Shown: piece after piece, positions 3,454-49,318 of the stretch
How positions within the stretch are numbered: the first letter of the stretch is position 1
Layout: the number at the start of each line of letters is the position of its first letter
From: Eledone cirrhosa
Lineage: Eukaryota
DNA length: 64,000 nucleotides
Direction: 5' to 3'
NCBI GenBank assembly: GCA_964016885.1
Contig: OZ024742.1
Span: forward strand, 223,510,001-223,574,000
The notes under the pieces: generated by a model
The model's database searches: none
Seen by the model: only the letters and a program-made list of their open reading frames with translations
Told to the model about the DNA's origin: nothing
Made by a program: the position numbers and the translations under genes

Positions 3454-3926
3454 TAGATTATGAGGTTAACTGAACAGAGATGTGTGAACCACATTATGGT
3501 CTATTGTTTGTGAAGCAGATAAAAAGAAGCAATCAACGACGTGTATAAATGGTGCCAGCTGGAGCATTATATATTATAAAAAGATCGGAGGCCATATTCA
3601 GTTGATTCAAGTTTATTTAAAACTCTGTTATACGTATTTCACTGAGGACTATCAGTTATAATAGCCTGAACTCTTCAGACAGCAAAAATTATAAAAACAA
3701 TGAAAGTTCCTTAAAAAACCTTTATGTTTATATTAAGAAAAGAAAATCTTTTTCAAGGAAGTTATTGGATTTTTCCAAACTTAAAAAGGTTTTTTTTAGG
3801 AACTTTTATTGTTTTTATAGGTTTTTTTGCCATCTGAGGAGCTCAGGCTATCATAACTGATAGTCCCCAGTGAAATATGTCTAACAGTGTTTTGAATAAA
3901 CCTGAACCAACTGAATCTTTTAATAA
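3452..3926 (-). mobile_element. TA-inserted foldback element with hammerhead ribozymes (Penelope-like, non-autonomous)
   Basis: Inverted arms at ~3597-3723 and ~3785-3916, each with a hammerhead core. Flanked by (TA)n and (CA)n. Confidence 0.75.
3625..3682 (-). ncRNA. Type I hammerhead ribozyme
   Basis: Minus strand reads CTGT-CTGAAGA-stem II-GAAA-TACGTA-TA-ACAG. Stem I is CTGT/ACAG and stem III is palindromic. A degenerate + copy lies at ~3829-3887. Confidence 0.7.
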
Positions 3927-3991: not shown

Positions 3992-3994
<3 letters not shown>

Positions 3995-4120
3995 TTTATC
4001 CTGGGTTCAATTGGGGGTAACCACAATAAGTAAGGTACTCAATACATAGCAGAGTATAAATATTTAATATAGAAATGGCTTCTACAGGACTAGAACTGTT
4101 TCATTTGAGAGAAATCATCA
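3992..4120 (-). mobile_element. Short TA-flanked element with a 5'-truncated hammerhead core and TTGAGTAC tail motif
   Basis: Minus strand TGATGA-TTT-CTCTC-AAAT-GAAAC abuts (TA)n. GTACTCAA at ~4036. Confidence 0.5.
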
Positions 4121-28854: not shown

Positions 28855-28856
<2 letters not shown>

Positions 28857-29873
28857 GAGAACAAGTTATCGTTATAGGTAATCCAGTCAGAGGTTGTGAG
28901 TACTCTGTATTGTAGATAGTTCTAACGTACGCCGTTGTTTGACTCAACAATAGGTTTCCATAGTTAGGTAGCGAGTTCGCGAGAATTCCTATGCAGGTTA
29001 TTATTGGAGTAATAATAGTGAAAGATTGAAGAATAACATGGTCGGCTGTACAAAAAGGGTCTTATTTCTAGTATTAACAATTGTTTCATTGATCAGGTGA
29101 GTCTAAAGGCCGCTAATCACTTGAAGTTGCGTCACTTGACCTTAAATACAGTGTTTACCTCTAATCAAATCATCGGAATACTGGAGGTTTTACATATGGC
29201 ATTGGTATTTATAGATACCACGGAGAATCAAAACAGTAACATCAATAATAAAAGATAAAAAAAAAGTTAGAATGAAGATGATAAAGATGTAAAAAATAAG
29301 TAAAACGATAAGTATAGAATACGATTGCTGATAATAGTGGTGGTGGTGATTAAAGTTACAGTGGTGAGTAAGTGTATGTGTAAAGACATGATGAGAGTAG
29401 AGATAATAATACTAACATGAAATGAAACATTAAATACATACATACGTAGTTGTCAAATCTCAGAGGGTTAGAGTAGAAAATAAAAAATAGTAACAAATAA
29501 CAGATAAAAGATAAAAGATAAAAAATAAAAAATAAATTAAAAATTTAGTGAGCGGGGAAGGGATACAGAACAGGAGACAGGGAGTGGGGGTGGCGATACG
29601 AGGATGAGACATAAGGGGTAGGGCCAAGGACGGGGAAGGAATAGATAGGTAGATAGAGAATAAAAATTGAGAGGGAGAGATACCAATGCCATATGTAAAA
29701 CCTCCAGTATTCCGATGATTTGATCAGAGGTAAACACTGTATTTAAGGTCAATTGACGCAACTTAGAGTGATTAGCAGCCTTTAAACTCACCTGATCAAT
29801 GAAACAATTGTAAATACTAGAAATAAAACCCTTTTTGTACAGCCGACCATGTTATTCTTCAATCTTTCACTAT
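28855..29873 (-). mobile_element. TA-inserted foldback element with two long-stem-II hammerheads
   Basis: Inverted arms at ~29015-29208 and ~29680-29873. GAGTACTC in the tail at ~28898. Confidence 0.8.
29705..29820 (+). ncRNA. Type I hammerhead variant (CCGAUGA core, ~80-nt stem II domain)
   Basis: AGTATT-CCGATGA-TTTGATCAG...CTGATCAAT-GAAA-CAATTG-TA-AATACT. Mirror copy at 29068-29183 on the minus strand. Confidence 0.65.
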
Positions 29874-29890
29874 ATATATATATATATATA

Positions 29891-29998
29891 ACGAAGGAAG
29901 AATGGTAAGGAACCAGGTGGACCATAATGCACCAGAGTACTCAACACTTTGGGTAGTAGAGTGGGGAATAGGAAAATGTTCAAAACCCTTTTTTCCTA
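29891..29998 (-). mobile_element. Minimal TA-flanked element: tail plus ~10-bp inverted end (second copy at 36678-36779)
   Basis: GAGTACTCAA motif and ATAGGAAAA...TTTTCCTAT. Confidence 0.65.
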
Positions 29999-30018
29999 TA
30001 TATATATATATATATATA

Positions 30019-30845
30019 TATTGTTATACTTGGGGAGGGTCATATTGTTGTAATAATATTGCCAGCAATGATAATGGAACACACTGTTTGGTTGGTTTTT
30101 GCTTCTGTATCTTTTATATCTCCATAGTTAATTCATTTGGCCATCAATGTTTATCATTTACTGACCAACGGTCAAAAATTTATATAAATATCTAAACATA
30201 GAAATGACCCAGCAAATCAGAGAAGCAAGCGAAATAGAGCTTAGAAAGCCAAAGCTAAACAGAAAAAATGAATGGAATAACAACAACACCCAAACAAACA
30301 ATACTGACTTAAGAGAAATATAAATAAATAAATAAATAAATAAATATATACACAAGCACAATAACAACAAACACATATAAACACACACTAATAAACTAAG
30401 ATAGGATACAATAACCAAAACACAGTCACCCAAACGTGAACACACGCACCAAACACTATACACACACGCAAACGCAGAGATGAAGACAAAAATAAATAAA
30501 TAAATAAATAAACAGATAAAATAAAAATGGCGTAGACATACAATACAACAGGAGGAAACATAATAGTACCACTGATGATGTTGCAGATGTGCAACGAAAG
30601 AACTTTGGTAGACTATATATATGTATCTATATCTGTATTTTTGACCGTTGGTCAGTCAATGATAAACATTGATGGCCAAATGAATTAACTATGGAGATAT
30701 AAAAGATACAGAAGCGAAAACCAACCAAACAGTGAGTGTGTTCCATTATTATTTCTGGCAATATTATTACAACAATATGACCCTCCCCAAGTATAACAAT
30801 ATTTGTTTCAACACACAATTTCATATAAAAAATCTTGCAAAACAA
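30019..30845 (+). mobile_element. TA-inserted foldback element with a hammerhead at 30567-30610
   Basis: Arms at ~30019-30178 and ~30637-30802. TACCA-CTGATGA-TGTTGCA GATG TGCAAC-GAAA-GAACTT-TGGTA. Confidence 0.8.
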
Positions 30846-31120
30846 ATATCATCATCATCATCATCATTTTCCGTCTGCTTTTCCCTGCTTGCAAGGGTGG
30901 GACGAGAACTGATTCTGGCTTGATTTCTACAGCTGGATGCCCTTCCTAACACCAACCTCATTTACAGTGAGTGCTGGGTGCTTTTTTGCCGTGGCACCTC
31001 CATGACCACTTTGCAATGGAATGATAGGGACCCCAGTCCTATCATCTCATTTCTACAGCTGAGTAAACTGGAGCGATGTGAAATAAAGTGTCTTGCTCAA
31101 GGAAACAACACATCACCCGG

Positions 31121-31187
<67 letters not shown>

Positions 31188-31250
31188 TATATATATATGA
31201 TATATATATATATGATATATATATATGATATATATATATATATATATATA

Positions 31251-31800
31251 ATATAAATGAAGTATTTCCATAGGAAAGGTAAAGGAAAAGAGAGTGCTCT
31301 ATGTAGGCTACAGAGCTTTTTAGTTATGTAATAAATAACATAAGATAATTATTTCATTTACCAGTGGTTTCTTGAAGACAGATACTTATGTCTGTCTTTA
31401 TTCACCAGAAGAAATATTTATTTATGAAATAGTAATATGGATTTGAAAACAGAGTTTAGGATAAATGAAAGTGAGGCTGAAATAAGATAACGGGCAAAAA
31501 TTGAGGGGAAAAAAATTAGTAAATAAATATCCAAATACATACTATTACGTATATGCATGAGTTTGAGTAGGTGTATGTTTATGTATTTGGATATTTATTT
31601 ATTAATTTTTTCCCTCTCAAATTTTGCCCGTTATTTTATTTCAGCCTCACTTTCATTTATCCTAAACTCTGTTTTCAAATCCATATTACTATTTCATAAA
31701 TAAATATTTCTTCTGATGAATGAAGACAGACATAACTATCTGTCTTCAAGAAACCACTGGTAAATGAAATAATTATCTTATGTTGTTTATTACATAACTA
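31251..31800 (-). mobile_element. TA-inserted foldback element; hammerhead at 31706-31770 (+), mutated mirror at 31351-31415
   Basis: Arms at ~31321-31543 and ~31575-31800. ATTTCTT-CTGATGA-ATGAAGACAGA..TCTGTCTTCAA-GAAA-CCACTGG-TA-AATGAAAT. GAGTGCTC in the tail. Confidence 0.82.
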
Positions 31801-31808
31801 TATATATA

Positions 31809-32186
31809 CAAAATGGATATTTAATTTGTTGGTATATCAACAAATATATATGTTTATAACTGATTCGAAGCACTCAACAAGTTTTCTGGAGTATAATATC
31901 AATGATATTAAATAAATGGAAACTATATTTATAAAACCATATTTATTCTATTATATATATTTCAAGGGTACCAAAACTTTGGTACGCTCTCATCAGATAA
32001 AATACAAAGTTTGTATCCAGGAAAATCTTGAACCGTTAAGATCTTCTTCCTGGATATGTTAATATTTATAAAACAAACTTTGTATTTTATCTGATGAGAG
32101 CGTACTAAAGTTTTGGTACCCTTGAAATATATATAATAGAATAAATATGGTTTTATAAATATAGTTTCCATTTATTTAATATCATA
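31809..32186 (-). mobile_element. TA-inserted foldback element with two hammerheads (31944-32004 minus, 32083-32143 plus)
   Basis: TATTTTAT-CTGATGA-GAGCGTAC..GTACCCTT-GAAA-TATATA-TA-ATAGAATA. GCACTCAA in the tail. Confidence 0.85.
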
Positions 32187-32211
32187 TATATACATATATA
32201 TATATATATAT

Positions 32212-32403
32212 AGAAGTGATTACACAACAGTTAGTTCACCATAACATGGTTATATGGAACCATGTCCATTATGAGCTGAGGAACCGCTAAGGTAAAACAA
32301 TTGTTCTCGGTATGGTGAACTAACTGTAACCACTTCTACCTAACTCGTCCCATGGACTGAGTGCTCTACCACTACGGATATTACCTTCCAGTGTTCTACC
32401 ACT
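32212..32403 (+). mobile_element. Small TA-inserted foldback with a mutated hammerhead (32273-32308)
   Basis: GAAGTG..CAGTTAGTTCACCATA pairs with TATGGTGAACTAACTG..CACTTC. GAG-CTGAGGA-ACC GCTAA GGT-aAAA-CAATTG-TT-CTC. GAGTGCTC tail. Confidence 0.7.
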
Positions 32404-32427
32404 ATATATATATATATATATATATAT

Positions 32428-32913
32428 AAATACAAAGTAAAAACCTACTACAGTCAGTAGGCATCTCTATCAACCCCCCCCCCGTCCCACCACCTCCACC
32501 CCATCCACACCGCCCCTTTCAATGTACAGTTATGTTGGTCCCACAACATCCAGGCCGAAACAAATGAGATCGTGTAGGTGTCACGACAAAAAAACACACA
32601 GTCCACGCTGTAAATGTGGCCGTGTAGGCAACACGGTAAAAACCTCCCAGCCCCACACTGTAAATGTGGTTGGTGTTAGGAAGGGCATCCAGCTGTAGAA
32701 AACCCGCCAGACAGTCCACGCTGTAATGTGGCCGTGTAGGCAACACGGTAAAAACCTCCCAGCCCCACACTGTAAATGTGGTTGGTGTTAGGAAGGGCAT
32801 CCAACTGTAGAAAACCCGCCAGACAGTCCTATGCGAGCAAGACAACCACTCTTGCCTCAAGTGGGAAAACCCCCGTCCAAACCCATGCAAGCGTGGAACA
32901 CGGACGCTAAACC

Positions 32914-32944
<31 letters not shown>

Positions 32945-32945
32945 A
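32428..32945 (+). mobile_element. RTE 3'-UTR-only insertion with internal duplication, TA-flanked
   Basis: Matches 45018-45403; (GAT)n tail. Confidence 0.85.
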
Positions 32946-32958
32946 TATATATATATAT

Positions 32959-33875
32959 AAGGATTAGAATACTGGAGCGTGTTGGAGTCAAACACCCTCT
33001 TCGTATTATAGAAATGACAGTAAAAGGTATAGCTCAATGCAGTTAAACAGAGCCAAAAAATTAAGAGAGTAAAACAAAGAATCCTTTAATACATCAAAAG
33101 TTTTTATTAGCCGACAATGTTTCGTCCTATTAAGGACTCATCAGGGCAATCAAAACAACAAGAGGTAATATCGGCAGATACAAGCCAGAAACTCTGAAGA
33201 ATATGGAGTGTACATACACTAATGTCTTACAAAAATATATGATAATAAAAATGAAAATAAAGATAAAAATAATAAAAATATATAATAAGAATAACTAAGG
33301 ATGTAGATAACATTAAGAACCATATTACAAATATAGTCCAAAGCAACTAACCTAAATCTCAACAAATTTGGTTATATAGAGCAGGAATTATATATAACAC
33401 AATATAATACATTATAATAATAATATACTTCTACCAACATTAAAATTCCAAATTAAAAATCAAAAGGTACAATATATACATGTATATATGTGCGCACACA
33501 CACACACACACACACACATATATAACAACACACACATCTATGTTCCACTACACAAAATTAAGCCCTATTAGAAGTTTGAATATTAAAAATAAGCATGATA
33601 AGAGTGAAAATAATACTAATACATCTACCCAATATACATGAGGCAATAATATGATATAATTACAAGAAACACATATAACAAATAATAAACAACAAAATTA
33701 TATAATTCAATATAATATAATAAAATAGATAATCCCCGGTTAATTTACAGAAACAATATAGATGTCACAATAAAATACAATGATAAAACGTTAACATTTA
33801 CCATAAACAATATATACAAATTGATTCATACTGGGTTACAGAATAAATGAGGAAAAATAAATTATATAATACTCA
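32959..33875 (-). mobile_element. Penelope-like pseudo-LTR fragment between TA tracts
   Basis: Contains a canonical minimal hammerhead followed by AATAAA on the minus strand. Confidence 0.65.
33110..33147 (-). ncRNA. Minimal type I hammerhead ribozyme
   Basis: GCC-CTGATGA-GTCCT TAAT AGGAC-GAAA-C ATT GTC-GGC. All core bases are canonical, with a GUC cleavage triplet. Confidence 0.88.
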
Positions 33876-33876
33876 A

Positions 33877-33924
<48 letters not shown>

Positions 33925-33926
<2 letters not shown>

Positions 33927-34543
33927 GAATTGTTATTACTTTATCTTTTAGTTTTTTCTTTCATTTTATTTTTTTATGGTTATATTTTGTATTCTTGTAT
34001 TTCTTTATTCCTTTATTCCCTTTGTACTTACTTCAAAGACTGTGACAGCAGACTTCCGGCAGACCAGGTGCTACGCAAGAATGAATTTGGTATAAGACCA
34101 GCGTAAAATGCCGCCTTGACCAACAAATGGCAGTAACAGCTGCTGAGTTCTAGGTCGTTACCCATTGAGATTTGACCGAATACAATTTAACAGGATGAAT
34201 ACGGTGATGACACATTCCTTTAACAGAGTGTGTGTGTAACAGCATAAAATAAGAAATCGGGATAAATATATAAATATCCAACCACTCTTAGACGCGAGTC
34301 TACATGGAAACACATATCTGAGGAGCTTCCGATTCCAGAGTCAGGATCGATCATTAAGCGATCGTTCCTCGAGCTGATCGACAGTGAAACATATGTAATA
34401 TGTAATTAAATATGTATATGATGCAACACTGATTCTTTGTTCCCTTATATATTAATACTATTGATATTCTGCTCCCTAAGAGCATTGAGTGCTCAACTAG
34501 GCATACCGCATACGGCCGCAATTAATTTGCTCCTTTAATACCT
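33925..34543 (+). mobile_element. TA-flanked element with a hammerhead at 34312-34403 and TTGAGTGCTCAA tail motif
   Basis: ACATAT-CTGAGGA-extended stem II-GAAA-CATATG-TA-ATATGT. Confidence 0.8.
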
Positions 34544-34756
34544 ATATATATATATATATATTCCTGGTCGTTCTTTTTCGGCTGCACGGGTGATTTTAGG
34601 CATGATCTCTGTGTGTTGGTATTTTAACGATAGTTATAGCTCTGGTTTATCCAAACTATTGAGCCCTCTGCCACACATGTCGGATATTGTTTATCGTGAT
34701 TTCGTGGGCCGATATTCCGATTCTCGATCATTCTAATATATATATATATATATATA

Positions 34757-34910
34757 AAATTAGAAAGACGTATATTAATATTGTCTAAGGTCCTGAAACC
34801 TTTGGTAATGGAGTAGTTATATATTGTGTTGTTCACTTTCTAATTAAATAGCTCTGTTCTATACATAGAGCACTCTTTTTCCTTTGCTTTTTCTTCGGAA
34901 TTACCTAAAA
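34757..34910 (+). mobile_element. Tail-only relative of the 31251 element with a short inverted end
   Basis: AGCTCTGT..TACATAGAGCACTCT..TTTCCTTT matches the reverse complement of 31280-31320. AATTAGAAAG/CTTTCTAATT inverted pair. Confidence 0.6.
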
Positions 34911-34949
34911 TACACACACACATACACACAGATACATATATATATATAT

Positions 34950-35215
34950 ATCTGTGGTCGTGGAGGTGCCACGGCAAAAAAGCACCCAGCCCACACTGTA
35001 ACGTGGACGTGTAGGCGCCACGAAAAAGCACCCAGCACTCACTGTAAATGAGGTTGGTGTTAGGAAGGGCATCCAGCTGTAGAAATCAAGCCAAATCAGT
35101 TCCTGTATGAGCAAGGCATGGTCAGCCGACCAGACACTGCTCACAACAGGACAACCCGTCTAACCCATGCTAGCGCGGAATAACGGACGTAAAACGGTGA
35201 TGATGATGATGATGA
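34950..35215 (+). mobile_element. RTE 3'-UTR fragment, TA-flanked
   Basis: Reverse complement of 45775-46045. Confidence 0.85.
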
Positions 35216-36044
35216 TATATATATATATATATATATATATACCCGTCTAACCCATGCTAGCGTGGAAAATGGACGTTAAACGAAGATGATGATGATGATG
35301 ATATACCCATATACATACACACTCTTAGAAACCTTTCCTATTTAGCAGTAAATATTCGCTACTTTCTCACTATCTCTCCCTCTCTATCTTTCTCCTTATT
35401 CATGAAAGTACTTGGATAAACCCCGTATCTCTGGAATTCGTACTCCGATTTATGCGAAACTTGTTTTATTCCATTTGTATTCCCATTTCAGGGTCGACTT
35501 CCTTTCAAAGTATTTTCTCATTATGCGCCGCTTTGGCTGTATTAAATTAAAGACAAACATACAATCACAGAGTTTTAGTAGTATATAGATAGATTCAAAA
35601 TAAACAAACACCACCACCAACACCACACTACCAGCACCACGGCGACGACGATGATGATGCTGGTACCTACATACATACATACATACATATGTCTTGCAAA
35701 GAACTCAATATTTATAAGTCAATATTTAAGCTGATGTTTACCACATAGCTATGATAGTTCAACATTGTTCGAAGTTGTGATACAAGGGAAACAAGTCAAT
35801 AAGACGTGATTTTAAAAAAAAAATTTTCATTTTGTTTTAGGAATAACTGTCTAGCTTTCTCACTAAAACCATCACTTATGCATACATAGACACGCACACG
35901 CACACACGTATGTGTGTGTTTATGATGTATGTATGTATGTATGTATGTATGTATGTATGTATGTATGTATGTATGTATGTATGTATGTATGTATGTATAT
36001 ATGTATGTGTATATGTTATGTATGTATATATATATGTATATATA

Positions 36045-36640
36045 TATGCTACTTGTAACATGTATCCCAGTACAACCTGTCTCATGGTCGGGTCGTTGGC
36101 GACTAAACTGGCAACCCCACCAAGGTTTCTTGGTGAGGAGGGTGACTTTGGACATCCTGCAGGACTAAAAACAAAACCTGTCAAAGGGCAAAGGAGCTCT
36201 TAAGAGTCAATGGCCATCCAAAATCACCGGGAGAGATGACTCCTTAGCCTTGGTCAAGGCAGAATTCTAGGAGAAGGAAAACTCTGATATAACACCTGCA
36301 ACCCTGATGGTATCCAATGATGTTGACTTGTTCTTCTTTTTGGTAAATATCATCTTGGTTAAGAGAGTGGGACTGGCTTTGTGCAGTGCCTTTGCTCACT
36401 ATAAAAGCTTCACGGCACAAGCATTGCTTTATATCTGGAGATCTCTCTGCACTTGTCGTCACATGGTACCATAGGCCCAGCACTATGTGTCAATAATTGT
36501 CACAAGTGTAGTGTTTGTACCAGAGTTTTCAAGTCGCTGGCTGGACTAAAAAGTCACATTCGTTCAGCGCATCGGTAGGGGTTCTCCTACATGGATATAA
36601 AGTAGTGGCCGTACTCGAAAACGAGTTGGCAGCCACCATA
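36045..36640 (+). mobile_element. Bipartite non-autonomous RTE derivative (putative 5'-UTR part plus C2H2 finger and 3' end)
   Basis: 36501-36578 encodes HKCSVCTRVFKSLAGLKSHIRSAHR*. 3' stem-loop CTCG-AAAA-CGAG. The 5' part is related to 5750-6015, 4690-5010 and 6770-6990. Confidence 0.7.
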
Positions 36641-36775
36641 TATATGTATATATATATATATGTATATATATATATAACGAAGGAAGTGTGGTAAGGAACC
36701 AGGTGGACCATAACGCACCAGAGTACTCAATACTTAGGGTAGTAGAGTGGGTAATAGGAAAAGAGTCACTCTTTT

Positions 36776-36812
<37 letters not shown>

Positions 36813-37744
36813 TCTTTTACTCTTTATCTATATAACATGCACATAAGAATGTGTTTACATCAGTGGGTAAGCTTTACGAAGAAAAAACTAGACAATTTCC
36901 TAAAATAAAATATCTTTTCTTATGAAGTCTTATTGAGTTTTCTCCCTTGTATCACAAACTGTTAGTTAAAATTATTTCATTTAGGAGAAAAGGGATGCGT
37001 TACTGAGAGAAGAGGGTGCGCGGAGTTGGGATAGCTTAGGGCATTAAATACCCAGGGACGGGCCCAGTGTGGAGGACAGCATAAGACCTGATTGAAAATG
37101 CAGACTTAGCAATTTTCTTAGTATGTGCAGAGCACGAAGTGTAAAAGAAACTAGATTTGTTAGCTTTCCAAACTCTAAGCTGAAATTATTTTATTTAGGA
37201 GAACTGAGGGGGGGGGGGGGGCATAACTGGGAGAATGGGGAGCATATTGTAAAACTAGACTAGGACACTAAATACTCAGGCGCCGGTTTTGCCCTTGCAG
37301 CATACACAGAAACCTTCTGCCACAAATAAATAACCCAGGCATGTTCAGCTTTCACACAACTCTACAGTTGTCTATGGCTCTGGTGTGACATTCATCAACA
37401 AAACAAGTTTCTTGCATATAAGATGCTGATACGCTCGTTACTCCTCCATACAGGGCCAGCACCTAGGTATTTACCAGTCTTGGCTAGCTCGGCAATTTGT
37501 GCTTTATTCTCTAAAAAAAAAAAAAATCTTAGTTGTTTGGTAATCTGACGAACTTAGTTTTTGAAAGTTCTTGCTCTGACCACACTAAGAAAATTACTAA
37601 GCCTGCTTTTTCCACTACACATTCCACATACACCCATGCTAAATCTTGTGACAGATCATGACTCTTTCCATCACTTTCGATATATCCACAACGCTGTTAC
37701 ACGGCTAAGATGTTTAGTGATTATTTATTGATCGAAGGTAATTA

Positions 37745-38170
37745 TTCATCATCATCACTGTTTTACGTACATTTTTCCATGCTAGCATGGGTTAGACAAG
37801 TTGTCCTGTTGTGGGCAATGCTAGGTCAGGTGACCATGTCTTGCTCTTACAGAACTGATTTTGGCTTGGGTTCTACAGCTGGATGCCCTTCCTAACGCCA
37901 ACCTCATTTATAGTGAGTACTGGATGCCTTTTGTCATGACACCTACACAACCACTTTACAGTGTGGACTGGGTGCTTTTTGTCACGACACCTATATGACC
38001 ACTTCACAGTGTGGACTGGGTACTTTTTGTCGTGACACCTATATGACCACTTCACAGTGTGGACTGGGTACTTTTTGTCATGACACCTACACAACCACTT
38101 TATAGTGTGGACTGGGTGCTTTTTGACGTGACACCTACACAACCACTTTACAGTTTGGTTGGGACGCTTT
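37745..38170 (-). mobile_element. RTE 3' UTR with 42-bp tandem repeats
   Basis: ACCTAYAYRACCACTTYAYAGTGTGGACTGGG repeated about 5 times; (CAT)n end. Confidence 0.8.
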
Positions 38171-38575
38171 TTACCTTAATTTAATTACATACATTTATAC
38201 AAAAAAAAAACTCTGACCCACGAGGTACCAGTAATACACCTCTCTGAGGTGTGCACCCTAAGTGGCTTTCTAGTTGGCCTCAATGGTAATGCTGATTCTG
38301 TCTCTATGGCTGTGAAAAGTGGTCCCTTTAGGGTTATAGAATTATGTCACAGAGGATATTTGATTGCTGGTGCTTGAGATGTAAGCTCTAAATTATATTG
38401 TTCGACTGAGTACCAATCATGCTACTTCATTCCCAGTGTAACATCAGCTCAAACTTATTGCTCATCATCTGAAAGTATCATTTCAGTTGGTTAAGTCATA
38501 TCTGTCATTGACTAGCCATTAATCCTCAACCACACCAGCAATTGTAGTGTTAATGGAGAGTATAGATCAAGATTT

Positions 38576-40665
38576 AATAATAATAATAATGAAATTATTG
38601 TGTAAAGTGCTCAGGTGCACTACAACTCGTCAAAGGTGCATGTATAGTACATAGAATAATATACAAATGTCAGGGAAGTGAACAGTGTATGAGTCATGAT
38701 ATACATGTGTGTATGTGAATGGAGGGGGAATATTAGGTGTAGTGTTGGCGAATCTCGGGAAGCATGGAGGTTTTAAAGGATGCAGTGTCTCGACAGCTAA
38801 CAACTGATGCAGGTATTTTGTTCCATGCTTCAGCAACTCTGAGCGTGAAAAAATGTTTCCGAAAGTCATGGGAACTGTGCTGTTTTCTGACTTTGTGGAC
38901 ATGTCCACGTGTGTTAGACACATGGAAATCAAAAAGGTACTCAAGGTTGTTGTTGGCAAGATCGTTAACAATTTTTGGGGCATTTACCAAGTCAGTTGCC
39001 AGGCGTCAGAGCTTCAGTGTATCCATGCCCAGGGAAGCAAGGCGTTCAGAGTATGGTAGATGCCTGATGGAGGGTATTCGCTTGGTTGCACATCTCTGAA
39101 CAGTTGCCAGGCGGTAAATATTCTGAGCAAGATAGGGGTTCCAGATTGGTGATGCAAATTCTAAGTGTGGCCGCACCATAGTCATGTACAGCCTTAAATA
39201 GATAGCTGGAGAGCGGCTGACAAACGTCTTGCTGAGTGATGCTAAGACACCCTCAGCCCTCTTGAACATTTTAGAGACGTGCTTCGCCCAATGCAAATCG
39301 CTGCTGACCGCAATGCCCAGGTCACGTTCACAAGAAGACTTCTTGATATTAGTATGTGGACGCTGGGTTTTTACTCCTAAAATGCATGGTCGTGCTCTTG
39401 TCCACAGCTAGCTTGAGTTGCCAGTCTGAGATCCATTGTTGCATTGTGTCCAGGTCAGACTGCAAGCAAGATCTATAGTGTTCAGGATCTGTCCTTTTTA
39501 TCTCAAGGTACAGCTTGATGTCATCTGCATACTTTAGTACTGTGGCATTCTTTAAGTTGGCATCTATGTCATTAATATATGCCACAAACAAAAGGGGGCC
39601 AAGAACAGATCCCTGTGGTACACCAGATGACATCTCATATGGTGAGGAATGCTATCCCAGAACCATGACTACCTCTCTTTGACTGAGAGTGAAGGACTTC
39701 AACCAGTTAAAAAGATCATCCTTCACACTCATTGCAGAGAGTTTTGCCATAAGCCTTTTGTGTGGCACAGAATTGAAAGCTTTCGCAAAGTCAAGGTAAA
39801 CAACATCCACCTATGAGCCGCCATCAGTGATCCGGGTGATGTCCTCAAGAAACTCGATAAGTTGATCACAGCAGCTGGAGTTGGGGATAAATCCAAATTG
39901 CGAGGGCCGGATAAGACTGTGAGAGCTCCAGAAGTTCCAAAGTGTTTCTCTGACACAGGATTCCATCAGTTTGGCGATGCAACTAGTAAGACTGACTGGA
40001 CGATAGTTCACAGGTGATGTGCGGTCACCCTTTTTGAACAGAGGAATGACACTGGCAGTTTTCCATTGTTCTGGAGTAGCACCGTTGTTCAGACAGAATT
40101 GGAAGAAGCGTGATAGCTGGTGCAGAACGAAGTACCCACCACGTTTAAGAAGCAGGTACATAACACCATCAAGACCAGGAGAGGCATGGTTGCGTTTATT
40201 TTTTAGGTGACGTCACAGCATTGCAGGTGTAAATTCCATGGTTGTAATAGAGTCCGGTGTCATAGGTGGTGGAGACGGTACACTCTGGTCTTCAATAGTG
40301 AAAATGCCTGCATAGCATTCAGCAATGAGCTCTGCACATTCCTTGGGGTCGTCAGTAACCTGGCTTGTGTGGGGATTGTGAAGAGGACCAACTGGAGAGT
40401 GAGGCCTCTGCTTTGAGTGAACATACTTCCAGAACACCTTACTGTCAGGGCTGGTTGCTATGTGCTGCTCAAATTGAAGCACTGCCTTTTTTGTCACCTG
40501 TTTGAGTTGGTTGGACGATTTATTTTGCCTCTTCCTATTGATGTCTGATTTGTGCAGTTTGTACTCACGTTCAGCATTGCGACGTTCTTTTCTGGCAAGA
40601 CGGACTGCTGCAGTCTCCCAAATTGCACTTTTGGGATGTTTTTCCGCTTACGTGGCACCGATGCT
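38576..40665 (-). mobile_element. 5'-truncated CR1 LINE (RT region, disrupted)
   Basis: NYRPVSLTS, GVPQGSVLGPLLF, KYADD, VRPHLEFA, TRGH and FFTLRVAEAWNK motifs; (ATT)n tail. Confidence 0.92.
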
Positions 40666-41469
40666 GGATAACATCTAACTGGATAACATTTGACTGGATA
40701 ACATCAGACCCAATCCAGCAGCTTTAACTGGCCATAATATATATGGCCTTCAGGGATGGAACATACAATAGCTTCTTTAAAACTAACAAGAAACAATAGT
40801 GGTTTTCCAGGATGCAGCTTCAAAGGAGGTACGTTAAACCTACAGGGTGTAAGCTGAAAGATTTCTACACTTTTTTTTTTCATCTAATGCCCTTTTAGAG
40901 AATATATTTCAGTAATGACTCTCATTATGTTCCAAGTTTGATCCTGGCATCTTGGACAAGTATCATTTATCATGGCCTCAGGTTGACTCACTCACATCTT
41001 GTAAGTGAAATTGCTGGACAAATTTTATGGGCAAAACCAATCAGCAGGAGACCCAGGGGTAAACCTTGAGTAATGACGATGATGACAAAGACGAGCAAGA
41101 TGGTTGGATAACATCTATGAGCTTGGCTGGTCTTGCTTGGGGATCCATCAGGATCAGTTGGAGACGGTTGCTTCTGGCAGGACCCACTGAAGGGAGAGTT
41201 TGAGGACTCTTCCTCCACGACCCTCTCAGGAATAAGTGGGCAAAGAAGAAGACTTAACATATTATTCTTACATAAAATTATGTTGGAAGATTTTAACTTA
41301 AATAGGAACCTCTTGAAATGGGTGCTTTTATTTCATAGAACCAGAGCTGGTTTTGGCTAGGTTGGTATTTGAATGATTAAAGAGTGTGGAGATCAAACCT
41401 CCCAAATTGAACAGATACACAGCTAAAATAGAAAAAAAAAAAGAAAAAGAAAAGATAAAATAGAAAAAT

Positions 41470-42625
41470 ATATAAGTATATACACGTGCATACATATATG
41501 TATACAGACGTACAGTAGTATGTATATATATATACATACATGCACACATATATATATGTACGTATGGATTCACCGAACATTTATTATAATGCTCGGTGTG
41601 TTTGTAAACAAACATCCCGTATTAAGCCGTAGTGTCTAGCAACCATCGTTGCTCATTTGTTCAACACTGACAAAGGAACACTGTACTAGTTTCAAGCTTA
41701 TTAGCTATCGTCAGCAACGTATACCTTCTTGCCAGATTGTTGAACGTATATACTTACCTTATGCATATTAACGGCTGAGTAGCCCAATTTGCATATCGAG
41801 TGGGTTAATCGGCTGGGTGCACCGAAAACGATAAACGGAAAAAATGAAACGAAATTTCATTTCCCACTCTTAGTACAGCTGTTACTTAAATATAAGTATG
41901 TACACGTACATACATATATGTATACAGACGTACAGTAGTATGTATATATATATATACATACATGCCGATGGTTGCTAGACACTACGGCTTAATATGGGAT
42001 GTTTGTTTACAAACACACCGAGCATTATAATAAATGTTCGGTGAATCCATAAGTACACATATATATGTGTGCATGTATGTATATATATATACATACTACT
42101 GTACATCTGTATACATATATGTATGTACGTGTACATACTTATATTTAAGTAACAGCCGTACTAAGAGTGAGAAATGAAATTTCGTTTCATTTTTTCCGTT
42201 TATCGTTTTCGGTGCACCCGGCCGATTAACCCACTCGATATGCAAATTGGGCTACTCAGCCGTTAATATGCATAAGGTAAGTATATACGTTCAACAATCT
42301 GGCAGGAAGGTATACGTTGCTGACGATAGCTAATAAGCTTGAAACTAGTACAGCGTTCCTTTGTCAGTGTTGAACAAACGAGCAACGATGGTTGCTAGAC
42401 ACTACAGCTTAATACGGGATGTTTGTTTACAAACACACCGAGCATTATAATAAATGTTTGGTGAATCCATACGTACATATATATATGTGTGCATGTATGC
42501 ATATATATATATACATACTACTGTACATCTGTATACATATATGTATGTACGTGTACATACTTATATTTAAGTAACAGCCGTACTAAGAGTGGGAAATGAA
42601 ATTTCGTTTAATTTTTTCCGTTTAG
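41470..42625 (+). mobile_element. Inverted plus tandem array of a 420-bp hammerhead-containing unit (retrozyme/pLTR-like)
   Basis: GATGGTTGCTAGAC at 41967 and 42387. 41470-41964 is the reverse complement of the unit. Confidence 0.82.
42314..42356 (+). ncRNA. Type I hammerhead ribozyme (mirror copy at 41678-41720 on minus)
   Basis: ACGTTG-CTGACGA-TAGCT AATA AGCTT-GAAA-CTAG-TA-CAGCGT, with a possible distal stem I extension. Confidence 0.82.
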
Positions 42626-42862
42626 AAAAATATAGTTTTGAGAAAATAAACTTGCTCGACCTGTTTGAAAACAAAGCTTCATGTATTATCAAGAAAAGGT
42701 GGATTAATGAGAACATTTTTATTTTCTGTATGTGGAAATAGAAAATATGCATGGCTGTGTGATTAAGGGATTCTGGGTTCAGTCTTGTTGTGAAAGTTGA
42801 GCAAGTGACTTCTGCTAAACATACATTCACTCACACACACACATATGTACACACATATATAT

Positions 42863-42911
<49 letters not shown>

Positions 42912-42915
<4 letters not shown>

Positions 42916-45403
42916 AGTCTGTGGCTGGAGCAGGCCTGTAGGCAGGAGGAGAGTAACATGGTGGTGGAACAGTAAGGTGGAGGGGTCAATTAAGGCCAAA
43001 AAGCAGGCTTGGAAAGTATGGCGGGATGGGGGAAGTAGAGAAGACTATCAAGTGGCCAGGAGGGAAGCTAGGAGACAAGTGTACTTCGCAAGAATGGAAG
43101 CAGAGGAAAGAAAGTTCAAGCATGTTCTACAACGTGAGGACCAAAAACGTGAGGTGTTCAGGATTGCTAGGCAATGTGTCAAGGAAAACAGTGATATTGT
43201 CGGGGAGAAGTGTGTACTTAACGATGACGGCGTACTTGCCATCACCGACGCCGATAAGAAGGTAGCTTGGAAGTGTCACTATGAAAGGCTACTAAATGAG
43301 GAGAATAAATGGGAGAAAGACAGTCTCCCCCACATCGACCCAATAGAGGGACCAGCAGTGTTAGTCGAGGGTAGTATAATAAGTAAGGCAATCAAAGATA
43401 TGAAGACAGGCAAGGCGGCTGGGCCTTCGGAAATAGTTGCCGAGATGCTGAAGGCATCTGGTACGGTGGGACACACCATGGTCACCCGGATAGTCAACCA
43501 AGTCATACAGAATGGGGTTGTTCCGAAGGACTTGCGTAGCAGCATTATCGTTAACTGTTATAAGGGTAAAGGAGATGCCCTAGATAGGAGTAACTATAGA
43601 GGCATTAAATTAATCGACCAGGTCATGAAGGTCACGGAAAAAGTAATAGCGCAACTAATCAGAGAGCGAATTGATCTAGATGAAATGCAGTTCGGGTTTG
43701 TGTCAGGAAAAAGTACCACAGACGCTCTTTTCATTGTACGACAACTACAGGAGAAGTACCTAGCTAAAAGTAAACCCCTATACTTAGCTTTCGTCGACTT
43801 AGAGAAGGCCTTCGACAGAGTCCCCCGTTCCATTATCTGGTGGGCTCTTAGAAAACTAGGTGTTGATGAATGGCTTGTGAGAGCCATAGAAGCCATGTAT
43901 AAAGAAACAGTCAGCAAGGTTAGAATTAACAACGAATATAGTGAAGAGTTTAGTGTAAAAGTTGGTGTTCATCAGGGCTCTGTTCTTAGCCCCCTACTAT
44001 TTATTATTGCCCTCCAGGCTATAACAGTGGAGTTCAAGACCGGCTGCCCATGGGAACTCCTATACGCAGATGATCTAACGCTCATAGCTGAATCAATGGC
44101 CGAGCTAGAGAAGAAATTCCAAACATGGAAGCACGGAACTAGAATCAAAAGGCCTTAAAATTAACCTGGCTAAGACTAAAGTTCTAGTTTGTAAGAAAGA
44201 AAATAAGGCGGCGGTCCCCTCCGGGAAGTGGCCATGCGCAGTGTGTAGGAAAGGCGTAGGTAGAAATTCCATTTTGTGTCCCAAATGCAAAGTTTGGGTG
44301 CATAAAAGATGTAGTGGGATCACAGGTAAGCTAACTAAGAACATAGATTTTACATGTGGCCGGTGTTCTGGGGCAATAAGTAGCAGCAAGTGCCTACAAA
44401 ATACTAGCTCTTTCAACTGCGCAGAGGGTTCTATAGAAATAGTGGACAGCTTCCGTTACCTGGGTGACAAAATCAGCAGTGGGGGAGGGTGCTCTGAAAG
44501 TACAGTAGCTAGAGTCAGAACTGGGTGGAAAAAGTTCAGAGAGCTTATACCACTATTAGCCGCTAAAGGGTTCTCCCTAAAAATGAAAGGCAGGCTGTAC
44601 GATGCCTGCATACGAACAGCAATGTTGCATGGCAGTGAGACCTGGGCATTGTATGCAGAGGATATACGCAGACTAGAGAGAAACGAAGCTTGCATGCTCC
44701 GCTGGATGTGTAATAGTAATATACGTGAACGACAAAGCATAAACGAACTAAGGAAAAAATTAGAAATAAGAGGGATCAGATGTTGTTTACTAGAGAGAAG
44801 GCTACGTTGGTATGGTCACGTGATGCGCATGAAGGACGATAGCTGTATAACAAAGTGCAGGGCAATAAAGATAGACGGTAGCCACGGAATAGGCAGACCC
44901 AGAAAAACCTGGGACGAGCTGATAAACTCCGACCTCACACACTTACACCTCACCAAGACAATGTCACTGGACCGAGATCTTTGGCGGTACTCAGTAATAG
45001 AGAAGACCCGCCTTACCTAAATACAAAGTAAAACCTACTACAGTCAGTAGGCATCTCTAACAAAATACACCACCCCCACCCCATCCACACCGCCCCCTTC
45101 AATGTAAAGTTATGTCGGTGCCACACCATCCAGGCCGAAACAAATGAGATCGTGTAGGTGTCACGACAAAAAAACACACAGTTCACGCTGTAATGTGGCC
45201 GTGTAGGCAACACGGTAAAAACCTCCCAGACCCACACTGTAAATGTGGTTGGTGTTAGGAAGGGCATCGAACTGTAGAAAACCTGCCAGACAGTCCTATG
45301 CGAGCAAGACAATCACTCTTGCCTCAAGTGGGAAAACCCCCGTCCAAACCCATGCAAGCGTGGAACACGGACGTTAAACGTTGATGATGATGATGATGAT
45401 GAT
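42912..45403 (+). mobile_element. 5'-truncated RTE LINE (RT+PHD) with a frameshift at ~44140, TA-flanked
   Basis: Very similar to 15226-17700. ORFs 42845-44158 and 44241-45020. Confidence 0.93.
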
Positions 45404-45737
45404 ATATAAGAAATTAAAAGATGGTTAAAAAAGTTCCATATATTTTATTATGCGCATTTCCTGGGACGATAATTGCGTTCTCATCAGATAAAATAAGGTA
45501 ACATGATATGATGCCTAAAAACACTTGTGAACAAGAAAGTGTCCAGTCAACATATGTTGAACGCAATTATCGTCCCAGGATGATATTTGTTTTTGAAATA
45601 CGCATAATAAAATATATGGAACTTTTTTAACCAACTTTTAATTTCTTCTATATATATACTCCAATTCTATCAACTGTTGAGTGCTACTTATCTGATATAT
45701 GCATAGTTTTATTGTTCTACAATATAACTCACCTCCT

Positions 45738-45740
<3 letters not shown>
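45404..45740 (+). mobile_element. TA-inserted foldback element; hammerhead at 45441-45495 (minus)
   Basis: Arms at ~45408-45480 and ~45559-45647. Minus strand TATTTTAT-CTGATGA-...-GAAA-TGCGCA-TA-ATAAAATA with imperfect stem II. TTGAGTGCT at 45677. Confidence 0.72.
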
Positions 45741-45774
<34 letters not shown>

Positions 45775-45779
<5 letters not shown>

Positions 45780-48680
45780 TCATCATCATCATCATCATCA
45801 CCGTTTTACGTCCGTTCTTCCACGCTAGCATGGGTTAGACGGGTTGTCCTGTTGTGGGCAGTGTCTGGTCGGCTGACCATGCCTTGCTCATACAGGAACT
45901 GATCTGGCTTGATTTCTACAGCTGGATGCCCTTCCTAACACCAACCTCATTTACAGTGAGTGCTGGGTGCTTTTTCGTGGCGCCTACACGTCCACTTTAC
46001 AGTGTGGGCTGGGTGCTTTTTTGCCGTGGCACCTCCACGACCACCTTGCGGTGGGGGGGGGGGGGCATATTGTTTATATGCTTCAGCATGTACCCATGGG
46101 AGGTCGGGTACCCTGTATTACTGCGTGACGCCAGAAGTCACGGTCGTGTGTCATTGACTTTGAGAGGTGTAGTTGGGTAAGGTCGGCTTTTATCACCTCA
46201 TCCCAAGTCATCTTGGGTCTCCCCACTCCGCGGTTTCCATCAACTTCTAGTGCTCTGCACCTTTTTATGCAGCTGTCATCCTTCATACGCATCACATGTC
46301 CATACCAGCGTAACCGCCTCTCCTGCACGCAGCATTTGATTCCTCTTATGCTCAGTCTCTCTCTCAATTCATTTATGCTTTGTCGTTCACGTATATTACT
46401 GTTACACATCCATCGGAGCATGCAGGCTTCGTTTCTCTCTAATCTACGTAAGTCTTCCACCTTCAGCGCCCAGGTCTCACTACCATGCAACATCGCTGTT
46501 CGGATACACGCATCATACAGTCTGCCTTTCATTCTGAGGGAGAAGCCTTTTGCAGCTAGCAGTGGTAGTAGTTCCCTAAACTTCTTCCATCCCGTTCTTA
46601 CCCTAGTTATTGTACTTTCTGAGCACCCACCTCCGTTGCTAATTCGGTCACCTAGGTAGCAGAAGCTGTCTACTGTTTCTACAGGGCCCTCCCAGAGATT
46701 GGTGGTACTTGTTTCCTGTGGCTGTTTGCTTGCTGTTTCAGCACAGCTGCTGCATGTGAATCCTACATTCTTAATTAAGCTTCCTGAGATCCCGCTACAT
46801 CTCTTGTGTACCCATTGTTTGCATTTGGGGCAAAGAATGGAGTTCCTACCTACACCTTTCCTACATACTGAGCAAGGCCATTTCCCTGAGGGGATCTGGG
46901 TTCTGTTTTCTCGTCTACTTATAAGGACCTTAGTCTTTGTCATGTTGACTTTGAGGCCCTTTCTCTCTAGTCCCTGCTTCCAGGTTTGGAATTTATTCTC
47001 TAGTTCTACCATAGATTCAGCTATGAGTGCGAGGTCATCAGCATACAGGAGTTCCCATGGGCATCCGGTCTTAAACTCCTCCGTTATTGCCTGCAGGACT
47101 ATGATGAACAGGAGAGGGCTAAGAACAGAGCCCTGGTGGACCCCAACCTGTACGCTAAATTCCTCGCTATACTCATTGCCAATCCTAACTTTGCTGACTG
47201 CTCCCCTATACATGGCTTGTACCGCTTTCACAAGCCATTCATCTACTCCTAGTTTTCTAAGAGCCCACCAGATTACTGCACGTGGAACTCTGTCAAAGGC
47301 TTTCTCAAGGTCGACAAATGCCAAGTAGAGTGGCTTACTTTTAGCTAGGTACTTTTCCTGTAATTGCCTCACAAGGAAGAGCGCATCAGTGGTGCCTTTC
47401 CCTGGTACAAACCCAAATTGCATCTCGTCTATATTCACCCGGTCCCTAATCAGCTGTGCTATAACTCTTTCTGTTACTTTCATGACCTGGTCCATCAACT
47501 TTATACCTCTATAGTTTCCTCTATCTAGTGCATCGCCTTTACCTTTGTAGCAGTTGACAATGATGCTACTGCACCAATCTTTTGGTATGGCCCCCTCTAG
47601 TATTACCTGGTTAACGATACGTGTGGTTATAGTGTGACCTACAGACCCAGATGCCTTCAGCATCTCGGCAGCTATACCCGATGGACCGGTTGCCTTCCCT
47701 ATCTTCATATCTCTGATTGCCTTACTTACTACGCTGCCGCTGACTTGTACTGCTGGTCCCTCTATAGGGTCTACGTGGGGTAGGGTCTCTTCTTCCCATG
47801 CATTCTCCTCATTTAGTAATCTATCATAATGACTCTTCCATGCATCTTTCTTCTCAGCACTTGTGAGGGCAAGCTCACCTTTATCATTCCGGATACACTT
47901 CTCTCCAATGACATCACAACTATCTCTGACACACTGCCTCGCAATCTTGAATACCTCCTGTTTCTGGTCCTCACGTTGTAAAACATGCTTGAATTTTCTA
48001 TCCTCTGCTTCCCTCCTAGCTAAGTATACTTGTCGCCTAGCTTCCCTCTTGGTCTCTATGTAATGTACCCTGCTCCCCCCGTTCTTCCATTCTTTCCATG
48101 CCTGTCTCTTGGCCTTGACTGCTTCATCTACCTTATTGTTCCACCACCAAGTCACTCTCCTCCTGCTTGAGGTCTTACTCCAGCCACAAACCTCATCCGT
48201 CGCCTCTAGTAAGTTATTTTTTAGGAACTCCCAGTTCTCTTCTACGTTAAATGTCTCTATCTGTTCTTCTTTACTGTCGTAGGCGTTGAGTAAAATATCT
48301 TTAAATCTGTTACTGGTTGAGGGGACTTTCAGCTTCCAGATCTTTCTTCTCCAGGTTGGCCTCTGTTTCAGGGCTCGTCTAGTTCTGACCGTGAGGTCGC
48401 TGACAACTACGCTATGTTGGGATGTACATTCCTCACTAGGGAAGGCTTTTGTGTTTACGACCGTCCATCTGTCACGTCCTCTGATGAGGATAAAATCTAA
48501 CTGACTAGAGTGCTCCCCTGATTTATAGGTGATCAGGTGGTTGTCGGGTTTTTTAAAGTTTGTGTTACATATCGACATGTCATTGGCGTCGCAGAATTCT
48601 AGAAGTCTGAATCCTTCCTCATTCCTTGTGCCAACTCCATGGCCTCCATGTACTCTATTGAAGCCGTCGCAGTGTTTACC
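45775..48680 (-). mobile_element. 5'-truncated RTE LINE, second subfamily, TA-flanked
   Basis: Uninterrupted reading frame, 3' UTR and (GAT)n tail. Confidence 0.93.
46083..48680 (-). CDS. RTE APE C-terminal half plus RT with PHD finger (open frame, lacks N-terminus)
   Basis: 831-aa ORF extendable to 48680 (GKHCDGFNRVHGG...). Motifs FVDLEKAFD, HQGSVLSP, YADD and C4HC3 finger. Confidence 0.9.
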   Translation of the reverse strand, partial: GKHCDGFNRVHGGHGVGTRNEEGFRLLEFCDANDMSICNTNFKKPDNHLITYKSGEHSSQLDFILIRGRDRWTVVNTKAFPSEECTSQHSVVVSDLTVRTRRALKQRPTWRRKIWKLKVPSTSNRFKDILLNAYDSKEEQIETFNVEENWEFLKNNLLEATDEVCGWSKTSSRRRVTWWWNNKVDEAVKAKRQAWKEWKNGGSRVHYIETKREARRQVYLARREAEDRKFKHVLQREDQKQEVFKIARQCVRDSCDVIGEKCIRNDKGELALTSAEKKDAWKSHYDRLLNEENAWEEETLPHVDPIEGPAVQVSGSVVSKAIRDMKIGKATGPSGIAAEMLKASGSVGHTITTRIVNQVILEGAIPKDWCSSIIVNCYKGKGDALDRGNYRGIKLMDQVMKVTERVIAQLIRDRVNIDEMQFGFVPGKGTTDALFLVRQLQEKYLAKSKPLYLAFVDLEKAFDRVPRAVIWWALRKLGVDEWLVKAVQAMYRGAVSKVRIGNEYSEEFSVQVGVHQGSVLSPLLFIIVLQAITEEFKTGCPWELLYADDLALIAESMVELENKFQTWKQGLERKGLKVNMTKTKVLISRRENRTQIPSGKWPCSVCRKGVGRNSILCPKCKQWVHKRCSGISGSLIKNVGFTCSSCAETASKQPQETSTTNLWEGPVETVDSFCYLGDRISNGGGCSESTITRVRTGWKKFRELLPLLAAKGFSLRMKGRLYDACIRTAMLHGSETWALKVEDLRRLERNEACMLRWMCNSNIRERQSINELRERLSIRGIKCCVQERRLRWYGHVMRMKDDSCIKRCRALEVDGNRGVGRPKMTWDEVIKADLTQLHLSKSMTHDRDFWRHAVIQGTRPPMGTC

Positions 48681-48689
48681 TATATATAT

Positions 48690-49318
48690 GTGGAAGTTCT
48701 ATTTAAATTGTTGGGATACAACAAGCAAATATTTTTATAACTGATATAAAGCACTCAACAAATAATTGGAGTAAAAATACGATATTAACAAATGGAAACT
48801 ATATTTATAAAACCATATTTATTTCATTATACATATTTCAAGGACACCAAGTTAAATTATGGTGTTCTTTCATCAGATAAAATATAATGTAGAGCAGTTT
48901 TATAAATAAATATTGACATACCCTTAAAGAATGCGATCATTACTGTTGGAAGCTATCCAGGAGCTTCCAACAGTAATGGTCGTAGTCTTTAAGGGCATCA
49001 TCATCATCATCATCATTTTACGTCCACTTTTCCCTCATCTCATTTCTTCAGCTGAGGAAACTGGAGCAATGTGAAATAAAGTGTCTTGCTCAAGGACACA
49101 ACACATCACCCGGTCTGAGAATTGAACTCACAACCTTTCAGTTGCAAGGTCAATGCTCTAACCACTAAGCCATGTATGTCAATATTTATTTATAAAACTG
49201 CTCTATATTATATTTTATCTGATGAAAGCACACCATAATTTAACTTGGTGTCCTTGAAATATGTATAATGAAATAAATATGGTTTTATAAATATAGTTTC
49301 CATTTGTTAATATCGTAT
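48690..49318 (-). mobile_element. Near-complete palindromic hammerhead element (family of 31809), interrupted by a SINE fragment
   Basis: Hammerheads at 48820-48884 (-) and 49211-49275 (+). Central hairpin at 48921-48995. GCACTCAAC tail. Confidence 0.83.

Follow-up and report, generated by a model that had tools for sequence, protein, structure and literature searches.

The window analysed here is a stretch of 64,000 nucleotides (nt) from Eledone cirrhosa (NCBI GenBank assembly GCA_964016885.1, contig OZ024742.1, forward-strand positions 223,510,001 to 223,574,000), and positions given below count from its first nucleotide. It contains open reading frame (ORF) copies at 46097-48634, 14784-17330 and 42914-45017 which, labelled from their reverse transcriptase (RT) motifs, we take to be long interspersed elements (LINEs) of RTE-like type, and a series of insertions next to (TA)n runs, many of them with a hammerhead ribozyme (Table 1). 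A preliminary description, made from the sequence alone, had pointed to a quasi-palindromic motif, GAGYRCTC, near the tail end of otherwise unrelated hammerhead elements. Most of the motif-bearing copies turn out to be 5'-truncated or inverted ends from diverged Penelope-like elements (PLEs) of the Hydra clade, and a duplicated RNA hairpin of these elements is a better reading of the motif than a palindrome common to unrelated ones.

All 11 cited motif sites were present, one of them (GTACTCAA) beginning at 4035 and not 4036, so the observation of a motif near element tails is confirmed as real. The window has 10 GAGYRCTC sites where 1.7 would be expected (60 Markov simulations, maximum 5). 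The form TTGAGYRC, summed over both strands of the window, shows no overall enrichment (9 against 7.9 expected), and the signal is therefore positional. In a genome sample of 79 evenly placed stretches (790 kb, 1725 TA-run flanks), with each copy of one family taken separately, TTGAGYRC faced a TA run at 40-79 nt 29 times against 3.4 expected, with a maximum at 50-59 nt. In the opposite orientation it was found 6 times at this distance, again against 3.4 expected, and the flanks of CA, CAT and GA repeats in the sample gave no peak like that at TA runs. Clustering of the TA-run flanks placed the motif in about ten distinct multi-copy families. As had been noted, the motif generally lies 3' of the ribozyme, except in the copies at 29935 and 36721, which are truncated at a point 3' of the ribozyme and lack it. 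The site given at 28898 exists as a second, degenerate site of a family whose canonical hairpin lies at 28942-29010 (-). GAGYRCTC at 14203, 48508 and 55562 and GTACTCAA at 38937 are away from TA junctions; the copy at 48508 (GAGTGCTC) lies inside an RTE-like LINE ORF copy and is unrelated to the element-end motif.

When the families are aligned on the motif, GAGT is partnered by an upstream ACTC and GAGC by GCTC, and the arms enclose a variable stem-loop of small size plus a 2-nt bulge whose first base is T. GAGY would form the 3' side of a hairpin with a U bulge, RCUC-stem-loop-stem-UN-GAGY, in which a change on one arm is compensated on the other between families. A descriptor of this hairpin shape has its maximum at the same distance from TA runs and also retrieves palindrome-free families, two of which have elements in the window that had been overlooked (33032-33053 on the minus strand and 34639-34664 on the plus strand). 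As a control for circularity, sites were picked solely by GAGYRC and distance from the junction: the strict hairpin was present in 59/118 sites at 35-90 nt against 4/122 at 120-400 nt, and in 9 of 11 near multi-copy clusters against 1 of 13 far ones. When 3' arms were swapped between families, the hairpin was kept in 18/72 cases. Among 17 family representatives, most of them chosen with the hairpin descriptor, the outer pair is GC in nine and AU in eight, the pair above the bulge is altered on both sides in seven, the U-A and C-G pairs are invariant, and the covariation score was reached by none of 500 shuffles. Rfam gave no near-threshold match at two junction regions, and its scan of the window gave no match to a hairpin site as such among the matches listed (150 of 222, all weak). 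A splice-site reading was dropped for lack of a GT/AG fit, and a promoter reading was weighed and then dropped.

The hairpin was also sought in metagenome contigs chosen by protein alone. An alignment of 114 related proteins, used as query, retrieved 77 contigs, where an earlier scan with one protein as query had found nothing. Of the 36 contigs with an intact ORF start and more than 100 nt upstream, 25 have the strict hairpin, often twice; the upstream regions hold 34 hairpins in 7.8 kb (4.4 per kb) against nine in 76.5 kb of ORF (0.12 per kb), and the bulge begins with T in 34/34, though the search did not demand it. Among the 11 contigs without a strict hairpin, inspection by eye showed four with one-upper-pair hairpins and two with a TCTC/GAGA variant. 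In an anchored test, in which only RCTC..GAGY was required (n = 51 sites), the pair closing the 2-nt bulge is formed in 45 sites (CG 31, TA 12) against 34 in shuffled ones (P = 1e-4), upper pairs 2 and 3 are formed in 36 and 35, covariation extends to all three upper pairs (P 1e-4 to 2e-4), and the first bulge base is T in 47. Three of six published Hydra consensus sequences, one from a coral and two from a sea cucumber, have clear hairpins by eye (Hydra-2_Amil, Hydra-2_Ajap and, twice at its start, Hydra-1_Ajap); those in Hydra-1_Amil and Hydra-1_Crog are doubtful, and none was seen by eye in Hydra-1_Obim.

The carriers are not the otherwise unrelated elements that they had been taken for. 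Eight window families (I, M, E, A, B, D, G and C) each link to their own Hydra-clade RT-endonuclease ORF, so that the signal has been passed down inside a single clade. An ORF with Hydra features terminates in family I (32213-32402) and lies directly upstream of it in L003 and L150-L179, and read-through copies of families M, E, A, B, D, G and C run on into their own Hydra-type ORFs (M in L138, L141 and L142; E in L039; C in L222 and L229; A as an intact 719-aa ORF in 3.54-kb tandems). For family K no ORF partner was found, its 7 matches at 2 loci having no common read-through. According to the parts of Craig et al. (2021, PMC8557442) consulted, the Hydra clade comprises PLEs with a C-terminal endonuclease, RWK-type and DKT motifs, a CxCx5C linker, CxxC and CxH, together with a hammerhead near the 3' end, (TA)n targets, partial tandems, inverted truncated copies and a tail at one end; as far as this account goes, these protein motifs, the hammerhead, the targets, tandems, inverted copies and one-end tail are common to the window elements. 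The N-terminal RWK-type motif (RWR, RWK or RWI) is found in families A, B, D, G, I, M and F20, with R37 (1.00) and W38 (0.98) conserved in the 114-sequence alignment, and DKG is replaced by DKT (SDKT or ADKT) in A, B, D, G and M, D117, K118 and T119 being conserved in the alignment. In families C and E the similarity is limited to the N-terminal or RT region. The family A protein of locus L289 has the conserved linker cysteines C572, C574 and C580 (CxCx5C), C670 and C673, and C698 and H700, and lacks the conserved cysteine pair inside the Y..G core (no CCHH); a Pfam search with it gave no match. These families insert at (TA)n and have a predicted hammerhead close to the 3' end, several of the cores being degenerate; hammerheads were judged by eye, as the descriptor missed known cores. 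The unit of family A, the one family measured, is 3.54 kb against generally less than 3 kb in the Hydra clade. At L289 (G000:C1:91476000-91484000) it forms a tandem array in which the unit recurs every 3.54 kb and ORFs of 717 and 719 aa are free of interruptions; this array was probably active recently, and similar arrays were found at further places in the genome.

Among the ends tested, the hairpin is restricted to the Hydra clade. The motif had been reported absent from the tail of the family at 30019, and 0/28 copies of that group have the hairpin. This tail has its match in the tail of an element whose N-terminus differs and whose GIY-YIG core contains cysteine; the family is related to a non-Hydra PLE. 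It had also been suggested that the motif be sought in autonomous Penelope/Neptune 3' ends: a Neptune-type family has the hairpin in 0/8 copies, and the Neptune/Nematis-type elements found with a Pfam search of the genome for GIY-YIG end without the motif, the L095-type Neptune ends having been read by eye only, with 0 testable copies in the control count. In the Neptune-type elements L095, L098, L106, L114 and L132 the 3' end is followed by a TA run, a common segment of about 32 nt and a second TA run, so their tail seems to hold an expandable TA stretch. In the autonomous relative of the 30019 family (L367-L380), the N-terminal ORF contains a long insert of low complexity that is rich in asparagine, and an identical AATATCG stretch comes after each end of this relative.

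Each Hydra-clade family carries two hairpins between the hammerhead and the start codon, that is, ahead of the ORF; hairpin 2 lies about 25-70 nt before the ATG, and both are in the 5' untranslated region (UTR). The ends of the copies lie at fixed distances from these hairpins. Family I copies end at two discrete points 67 nt apart (14 short, 15 long and one unreadable; n = 30 loci). The short, tail-less end has a modal offset of 6-10 nt before hairpin 1 in 11/14 families (18/20 at 8 nt in family A, 34/39 at 6 or 8 nt in family I). In family M the second hairpin lies 7 nt past the long end, which predicted the same in other families, and read-through copies were sought with genome patterns demanding a non-TA continuation and no hairpin; long-end offsets from queries containing TA runs are confounded and were excluded. 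From the long end to hairpin 2 the distance is 6-9 nt, and this hairpin is canonical in seven ORF-linked families and degenerate in two, one further family having no read-through copy. In read-through loci hairpin 2 begins about 6-8 nt past the long end in 11/15 (A), 8/9 (B), 5/8 (D) and 9/13 (G), and 6 and 9 nt past it at the single loci of F20 and E. By eye, readable ends lie 2-11 nt before a hairpin in 11/34 metagenome contigs. The distance of 35-70 nt from motif to TA junction in the preliminary description agrees with the 44-70 nt measured in the window; it follows from the gap to the second hairpin, which stays outside the copy, the tight spacing being instead to the end 5' of the hairpin. 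Inverted-arm insertions join one long, tailed end and one short end in five window elements, judged by eye (Table 1).

Short tandem units with no ORF retain the hammerhead and both hairpins, and are retrozyme-like parasites of the Hydra elements. They were seen in L026 (826-2400), L055 (2100-3100), L162 (2500-2800), L097 (1-560) and L029, among them 592-nt tandems and the F8 family of about 480 nt, with a U3-A8 variant of the hammerhead core. In the portion of the preprint consulted, non-LTR (long terminal repeat) retrozymes are described as short tandem hammerhead units (Li et al. 2026, bioRxiv 10.64898/2026.07.22.740005), which the units of L026 and L055, related to PLE ends, resemble. The window copies differ from this description: they are truncated or inverted ends that stand singly, and most have a parent element with an ORF; two or more consecutive ORF-less units were found only in L026 and L055, and retrozyme identity was rejected for the window copies. 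That portion of the preprint mentions no hairpin.

A hairpin whose arms covary, which is duplicated, restricted to one clade among the tested ends and held at a fixed distance from both ends, is probably a docking site: the motif would be the 3' arm of a U-bulged hairpin that Hydra-clade elements carry twice, each copy docking the RT-endonuclease, with copying starting 6-10 nt 5' of it. Of the cis-acting signal for the mobilising RT/endonuclease proposed earlier, a shared, positioned element 3' of the hammerhead and plausibly read by the enzyme remains; it is half of a stem-loop and belongs to one clade. The RT-endonuclease would bind the hairpin in a read-through tandem transcript, and the nicked (TA)n target would prime at a TA-like stretch just upstream. 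Priming ahead of hairpin 1 would give a tail-less end and priming ahead of hairpin 2 a tailed end whose tail holds hairpin 1; both events at one target would give the inverted tailed and tail-less insertion. The two docking sites would thereby set two priming points and account for the PLE "tail". Internal priming at docked hairpins fits what the consulted part of Frangieh et al. (2024, PMC11167929) reports for PAc, a Poseidon element of Anolis, in which synthesis begins internally on the RNA, at two positions that delimit the tail, and depends on RNA located 3' of them; relative to that part of the PAc account, the candidate motif here is defined, duplicated and in the 5' UTR.

Several points weigh against docking at the hairpins as the place where copying starts. 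The bulged form is the minimum-energy fold in just 6/13 window tails (z -2.1 to +0.3), so that energy folding alone gives the hairpin weak support, and greedy de-duplication of all GAG sites shrinks the excess to 7/309 against 5/1022. The strand of function is ambiguous from the pair types (GU 8, AC 4, in the 51 anchored sites), and it has been suggested that PLEs use an antisense template. No short ends were obtained for families H and F8, the one of family F is at -1, and all end offsets are uncertain by a few bases owing to TA microhomology. As to the second hairpin, family C has the canonical form in 0/2 read-through copies, with a plain 4-bp hairpin only, that of family I is degenerate (long loop, A bulge), no read-through copy of family K was recovered, and the second site of family E (GAGTACTC) matches no copy end.

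An unlikely alternative is that the hairpins direct transcript cutting or 3'-end formation 6-10 nt upstream, where ordinary target-primed copying would then start. This would account for the same spacing with no internal initiation, but the PLE that has been tested initiates internally on uncut RNA, and both start regions have TA-like bases matching the target, as priming sites would have. Less probable again, the hairpins could be signals for translation control or ribonucleoprotein assembly, with the ends adjoining a passive barrier of bound protein or structure, as their place in the 5' UTR and the short distance of hairpin 2 from the ATG would suggest; the spacing to the ATG, however, varies widely while that to the ends is tight, and the units with no ORF retain both hairpins. 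It is improbable that GAGYRCTC acts as a double-stranded DNA palindrome, or RNA self-duplex, read by a dimeric endonuclease, although the full palindrome is present in several families, RCT is conserved after GAGY, and the Drosophila Penelope endonuclease is reported to need tail DNA for recognition (as cited in the consulted part of PMC11167929). The bases after GAGY in the 51 anchored sites are A 39, C 46, T 44, C 26 and T 42: the base that completes GAG..CTC is C in only about half of the sites and is less constant than its neighbour, which means that the palindrome is not kept. Its two halves are not conserved symmetrically, the M-group families have no palindrome, and covariation is with the upstream RCTC arm and stem, so the conserved quasi-palindrome of the preliminary description does not hold; the RNA self-duplex was dropped because the common GAGCAC form gives two C-A mismatches. 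A functionless leftover of chance or common descent is very improbable, since for all the shared ancestry of the families and genome counts swollen by their copies, pairing and bulge are kept where flanks, loop and upper-stem sequence are not, in elements with about 40 percent identical proteins, and the test on motif-only sites, the metagenome contigs and the anchored covariation largely refute it.

Docking at the two hairpins can be tentatively extended to a recognition mechanism. The arginine sandwich motif of 7SK SL1 and TAR consists of a pair, a bulge with U first, and G-C and A-U pairs (Pham et al. 2018, PMC6189040, consulted in part). The hairpin appears from its sequence to have the same local secondary structure, with T first in the bulge (47/51), the preceding pair (45/51) and the invariant U-A and C-G pairs, and with an A-U pair placed as for a U-AU triple; relative to 7SK SL1 and TAR as presented in that part of the source, the loop closes the other helix end, and no homology is claimed. 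In a model of the Hydra-clade protein (mean predicted local distance difference test score 93), the RxRW motif is predicted on helix 18-46, with the invariant R35, R37 and W38 on one long helix; a search of solved-structure sequences with the protein alignment gave no match. A dimer, as predicted for PAc in the consulted part of PMC11167929, might conceivably grip two hairpins of TAR/7SK type on one read-through RNA via its RxRW helices, and prime two complementary DNAs from both nicked (TA)n strands 6-10 nt before each hairpin. The link between the modelled RxRW helix and binding of an arginine-sandwich hairpin is speculation; if the dimer reading is true, one step would explain both the Penelope tail and the inverted tailed and tail-less insertions.

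In LINE/SINE (short interspersed element) pairs and in R2, a 3' stem-loop lets the retrotransposon protein pick its template and lies inside the copied region. Unlike these, the hairpin matched to an end here lies 3' of that end and is omitted from the copy. The consulted part of the Hydra-clade account (PMC8557442) describes no hairpin, ascribes the tail to endonuclease resolution and gives tails of 30-40 nt, against about 60-160 nt here. The preliminary description knew of no earlier account of the motif, and none was found in a literature search that left out most subscription papers, Repbase reports and the supplements of the retrozyme preprint. Template choice and the one-end tail are open questions for PLEs, the closest retrotransposon relatives of telomerase, and the sole in vitro study of a PLE placed two internal start sites but gave no motif for binding. 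A hairpin of 20 nt that is found across the clade, occurs in duplicate and keeps a fixed distance from the ends is a direct handle for a test. It also gives a rule for annotating the ends of Hydra elements and their non-coding parasites, and may be a portable signal by which RNA-templated insertions can be directed into TA repeats.

Table 1. Hairpins, host elements and related features of the window.
Feature	Position	Strand	Remarks
Hairpin 1, family C	4037..4055	-	
Family C element	3993-4119		Long end 3993; 5'-truncated within hammerhead core
Family E element	28856..29870	-	Tailed arm (long end 28856) and inverted tail-less arm (short end 29870)
Family E degenerate hammerhead cores	29076-29135; 29753-29812	-; +	
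Hairpin 1, family E	28942..29010	-	48-nt loop insertion; begins 4-7 nt past short end
Family E second, degenerate site GAGTACTC	28898..28922	-	No canonical hairpin
Hairpin 1, family A	29939..29962	-	Fragment 29891-29996; hammerhead lost
30019 family	30022..30828	+	Inverted arms, hammerhead 30572, short tail, no hairpin (negative control)
Hairpin 1, family D	31296..31316	-	Element 31251-31798; ORF with RWK and DKT motifs
Family D inverted arms	31321-31541; 31580-31800		Hammerhead 31713-31762 on + arm
Hairpin 1, family B	31872..31892	-	Element ~31809-32190; hammerheads 31954-31996 (-), 32091-32133 (+)
Hairpin 1, family I	32343..32362	+	1-nt U bulge; element 32213-32402; mutated hammerhead from 32276
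Hairpin 1, family M	33032..33053	-	Palindrome-free; element 32960-33884; hammerhead 33113-33144
Hairpin 1, family K	34466..34490	+	Element ~33925-34542; hammerhead 34318-34397
Hairpin 1, family H	34639..34664	+	Fragment 34562-34735
Hairpin 1, family D relative	34851..34871	+	Fragment 34757-34907
Hairpin 1, family A	36725..36748	-	Fragment 36677-36777
Hairpin 1, family G	45658..45682	+	One mismatch relative to other copies
Family G element	~45407-45738		Hammerhead 45449-45487 on inverted arm
Hairpin 1, family B	48753..48772	-	Element ~48690-49315; hammerheads 48830-48876 (-), 49219-49265 (+)
Elements with paired long and short end	28856-29870; 31251-31798; 31809-32190; 32213-32402; 48690-49315		

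Family A copies often consist of just 105 nt of tail with a TA run on either side, as at 29890-29996 and 36677-36777 in the window and in L007, L202 and L207, or are folded back at the palindrome of hammerhead helix III. Two further insertions in the window have inverted arms with hammerheads. The one at 3455-3920 has cores at 3631-3678 (-) and 3834-3881 (+), with no tail or hairpin seen, and that at 41523-42511 has arms of 432 nt with cores at 41714 (-) and 42320 (+).

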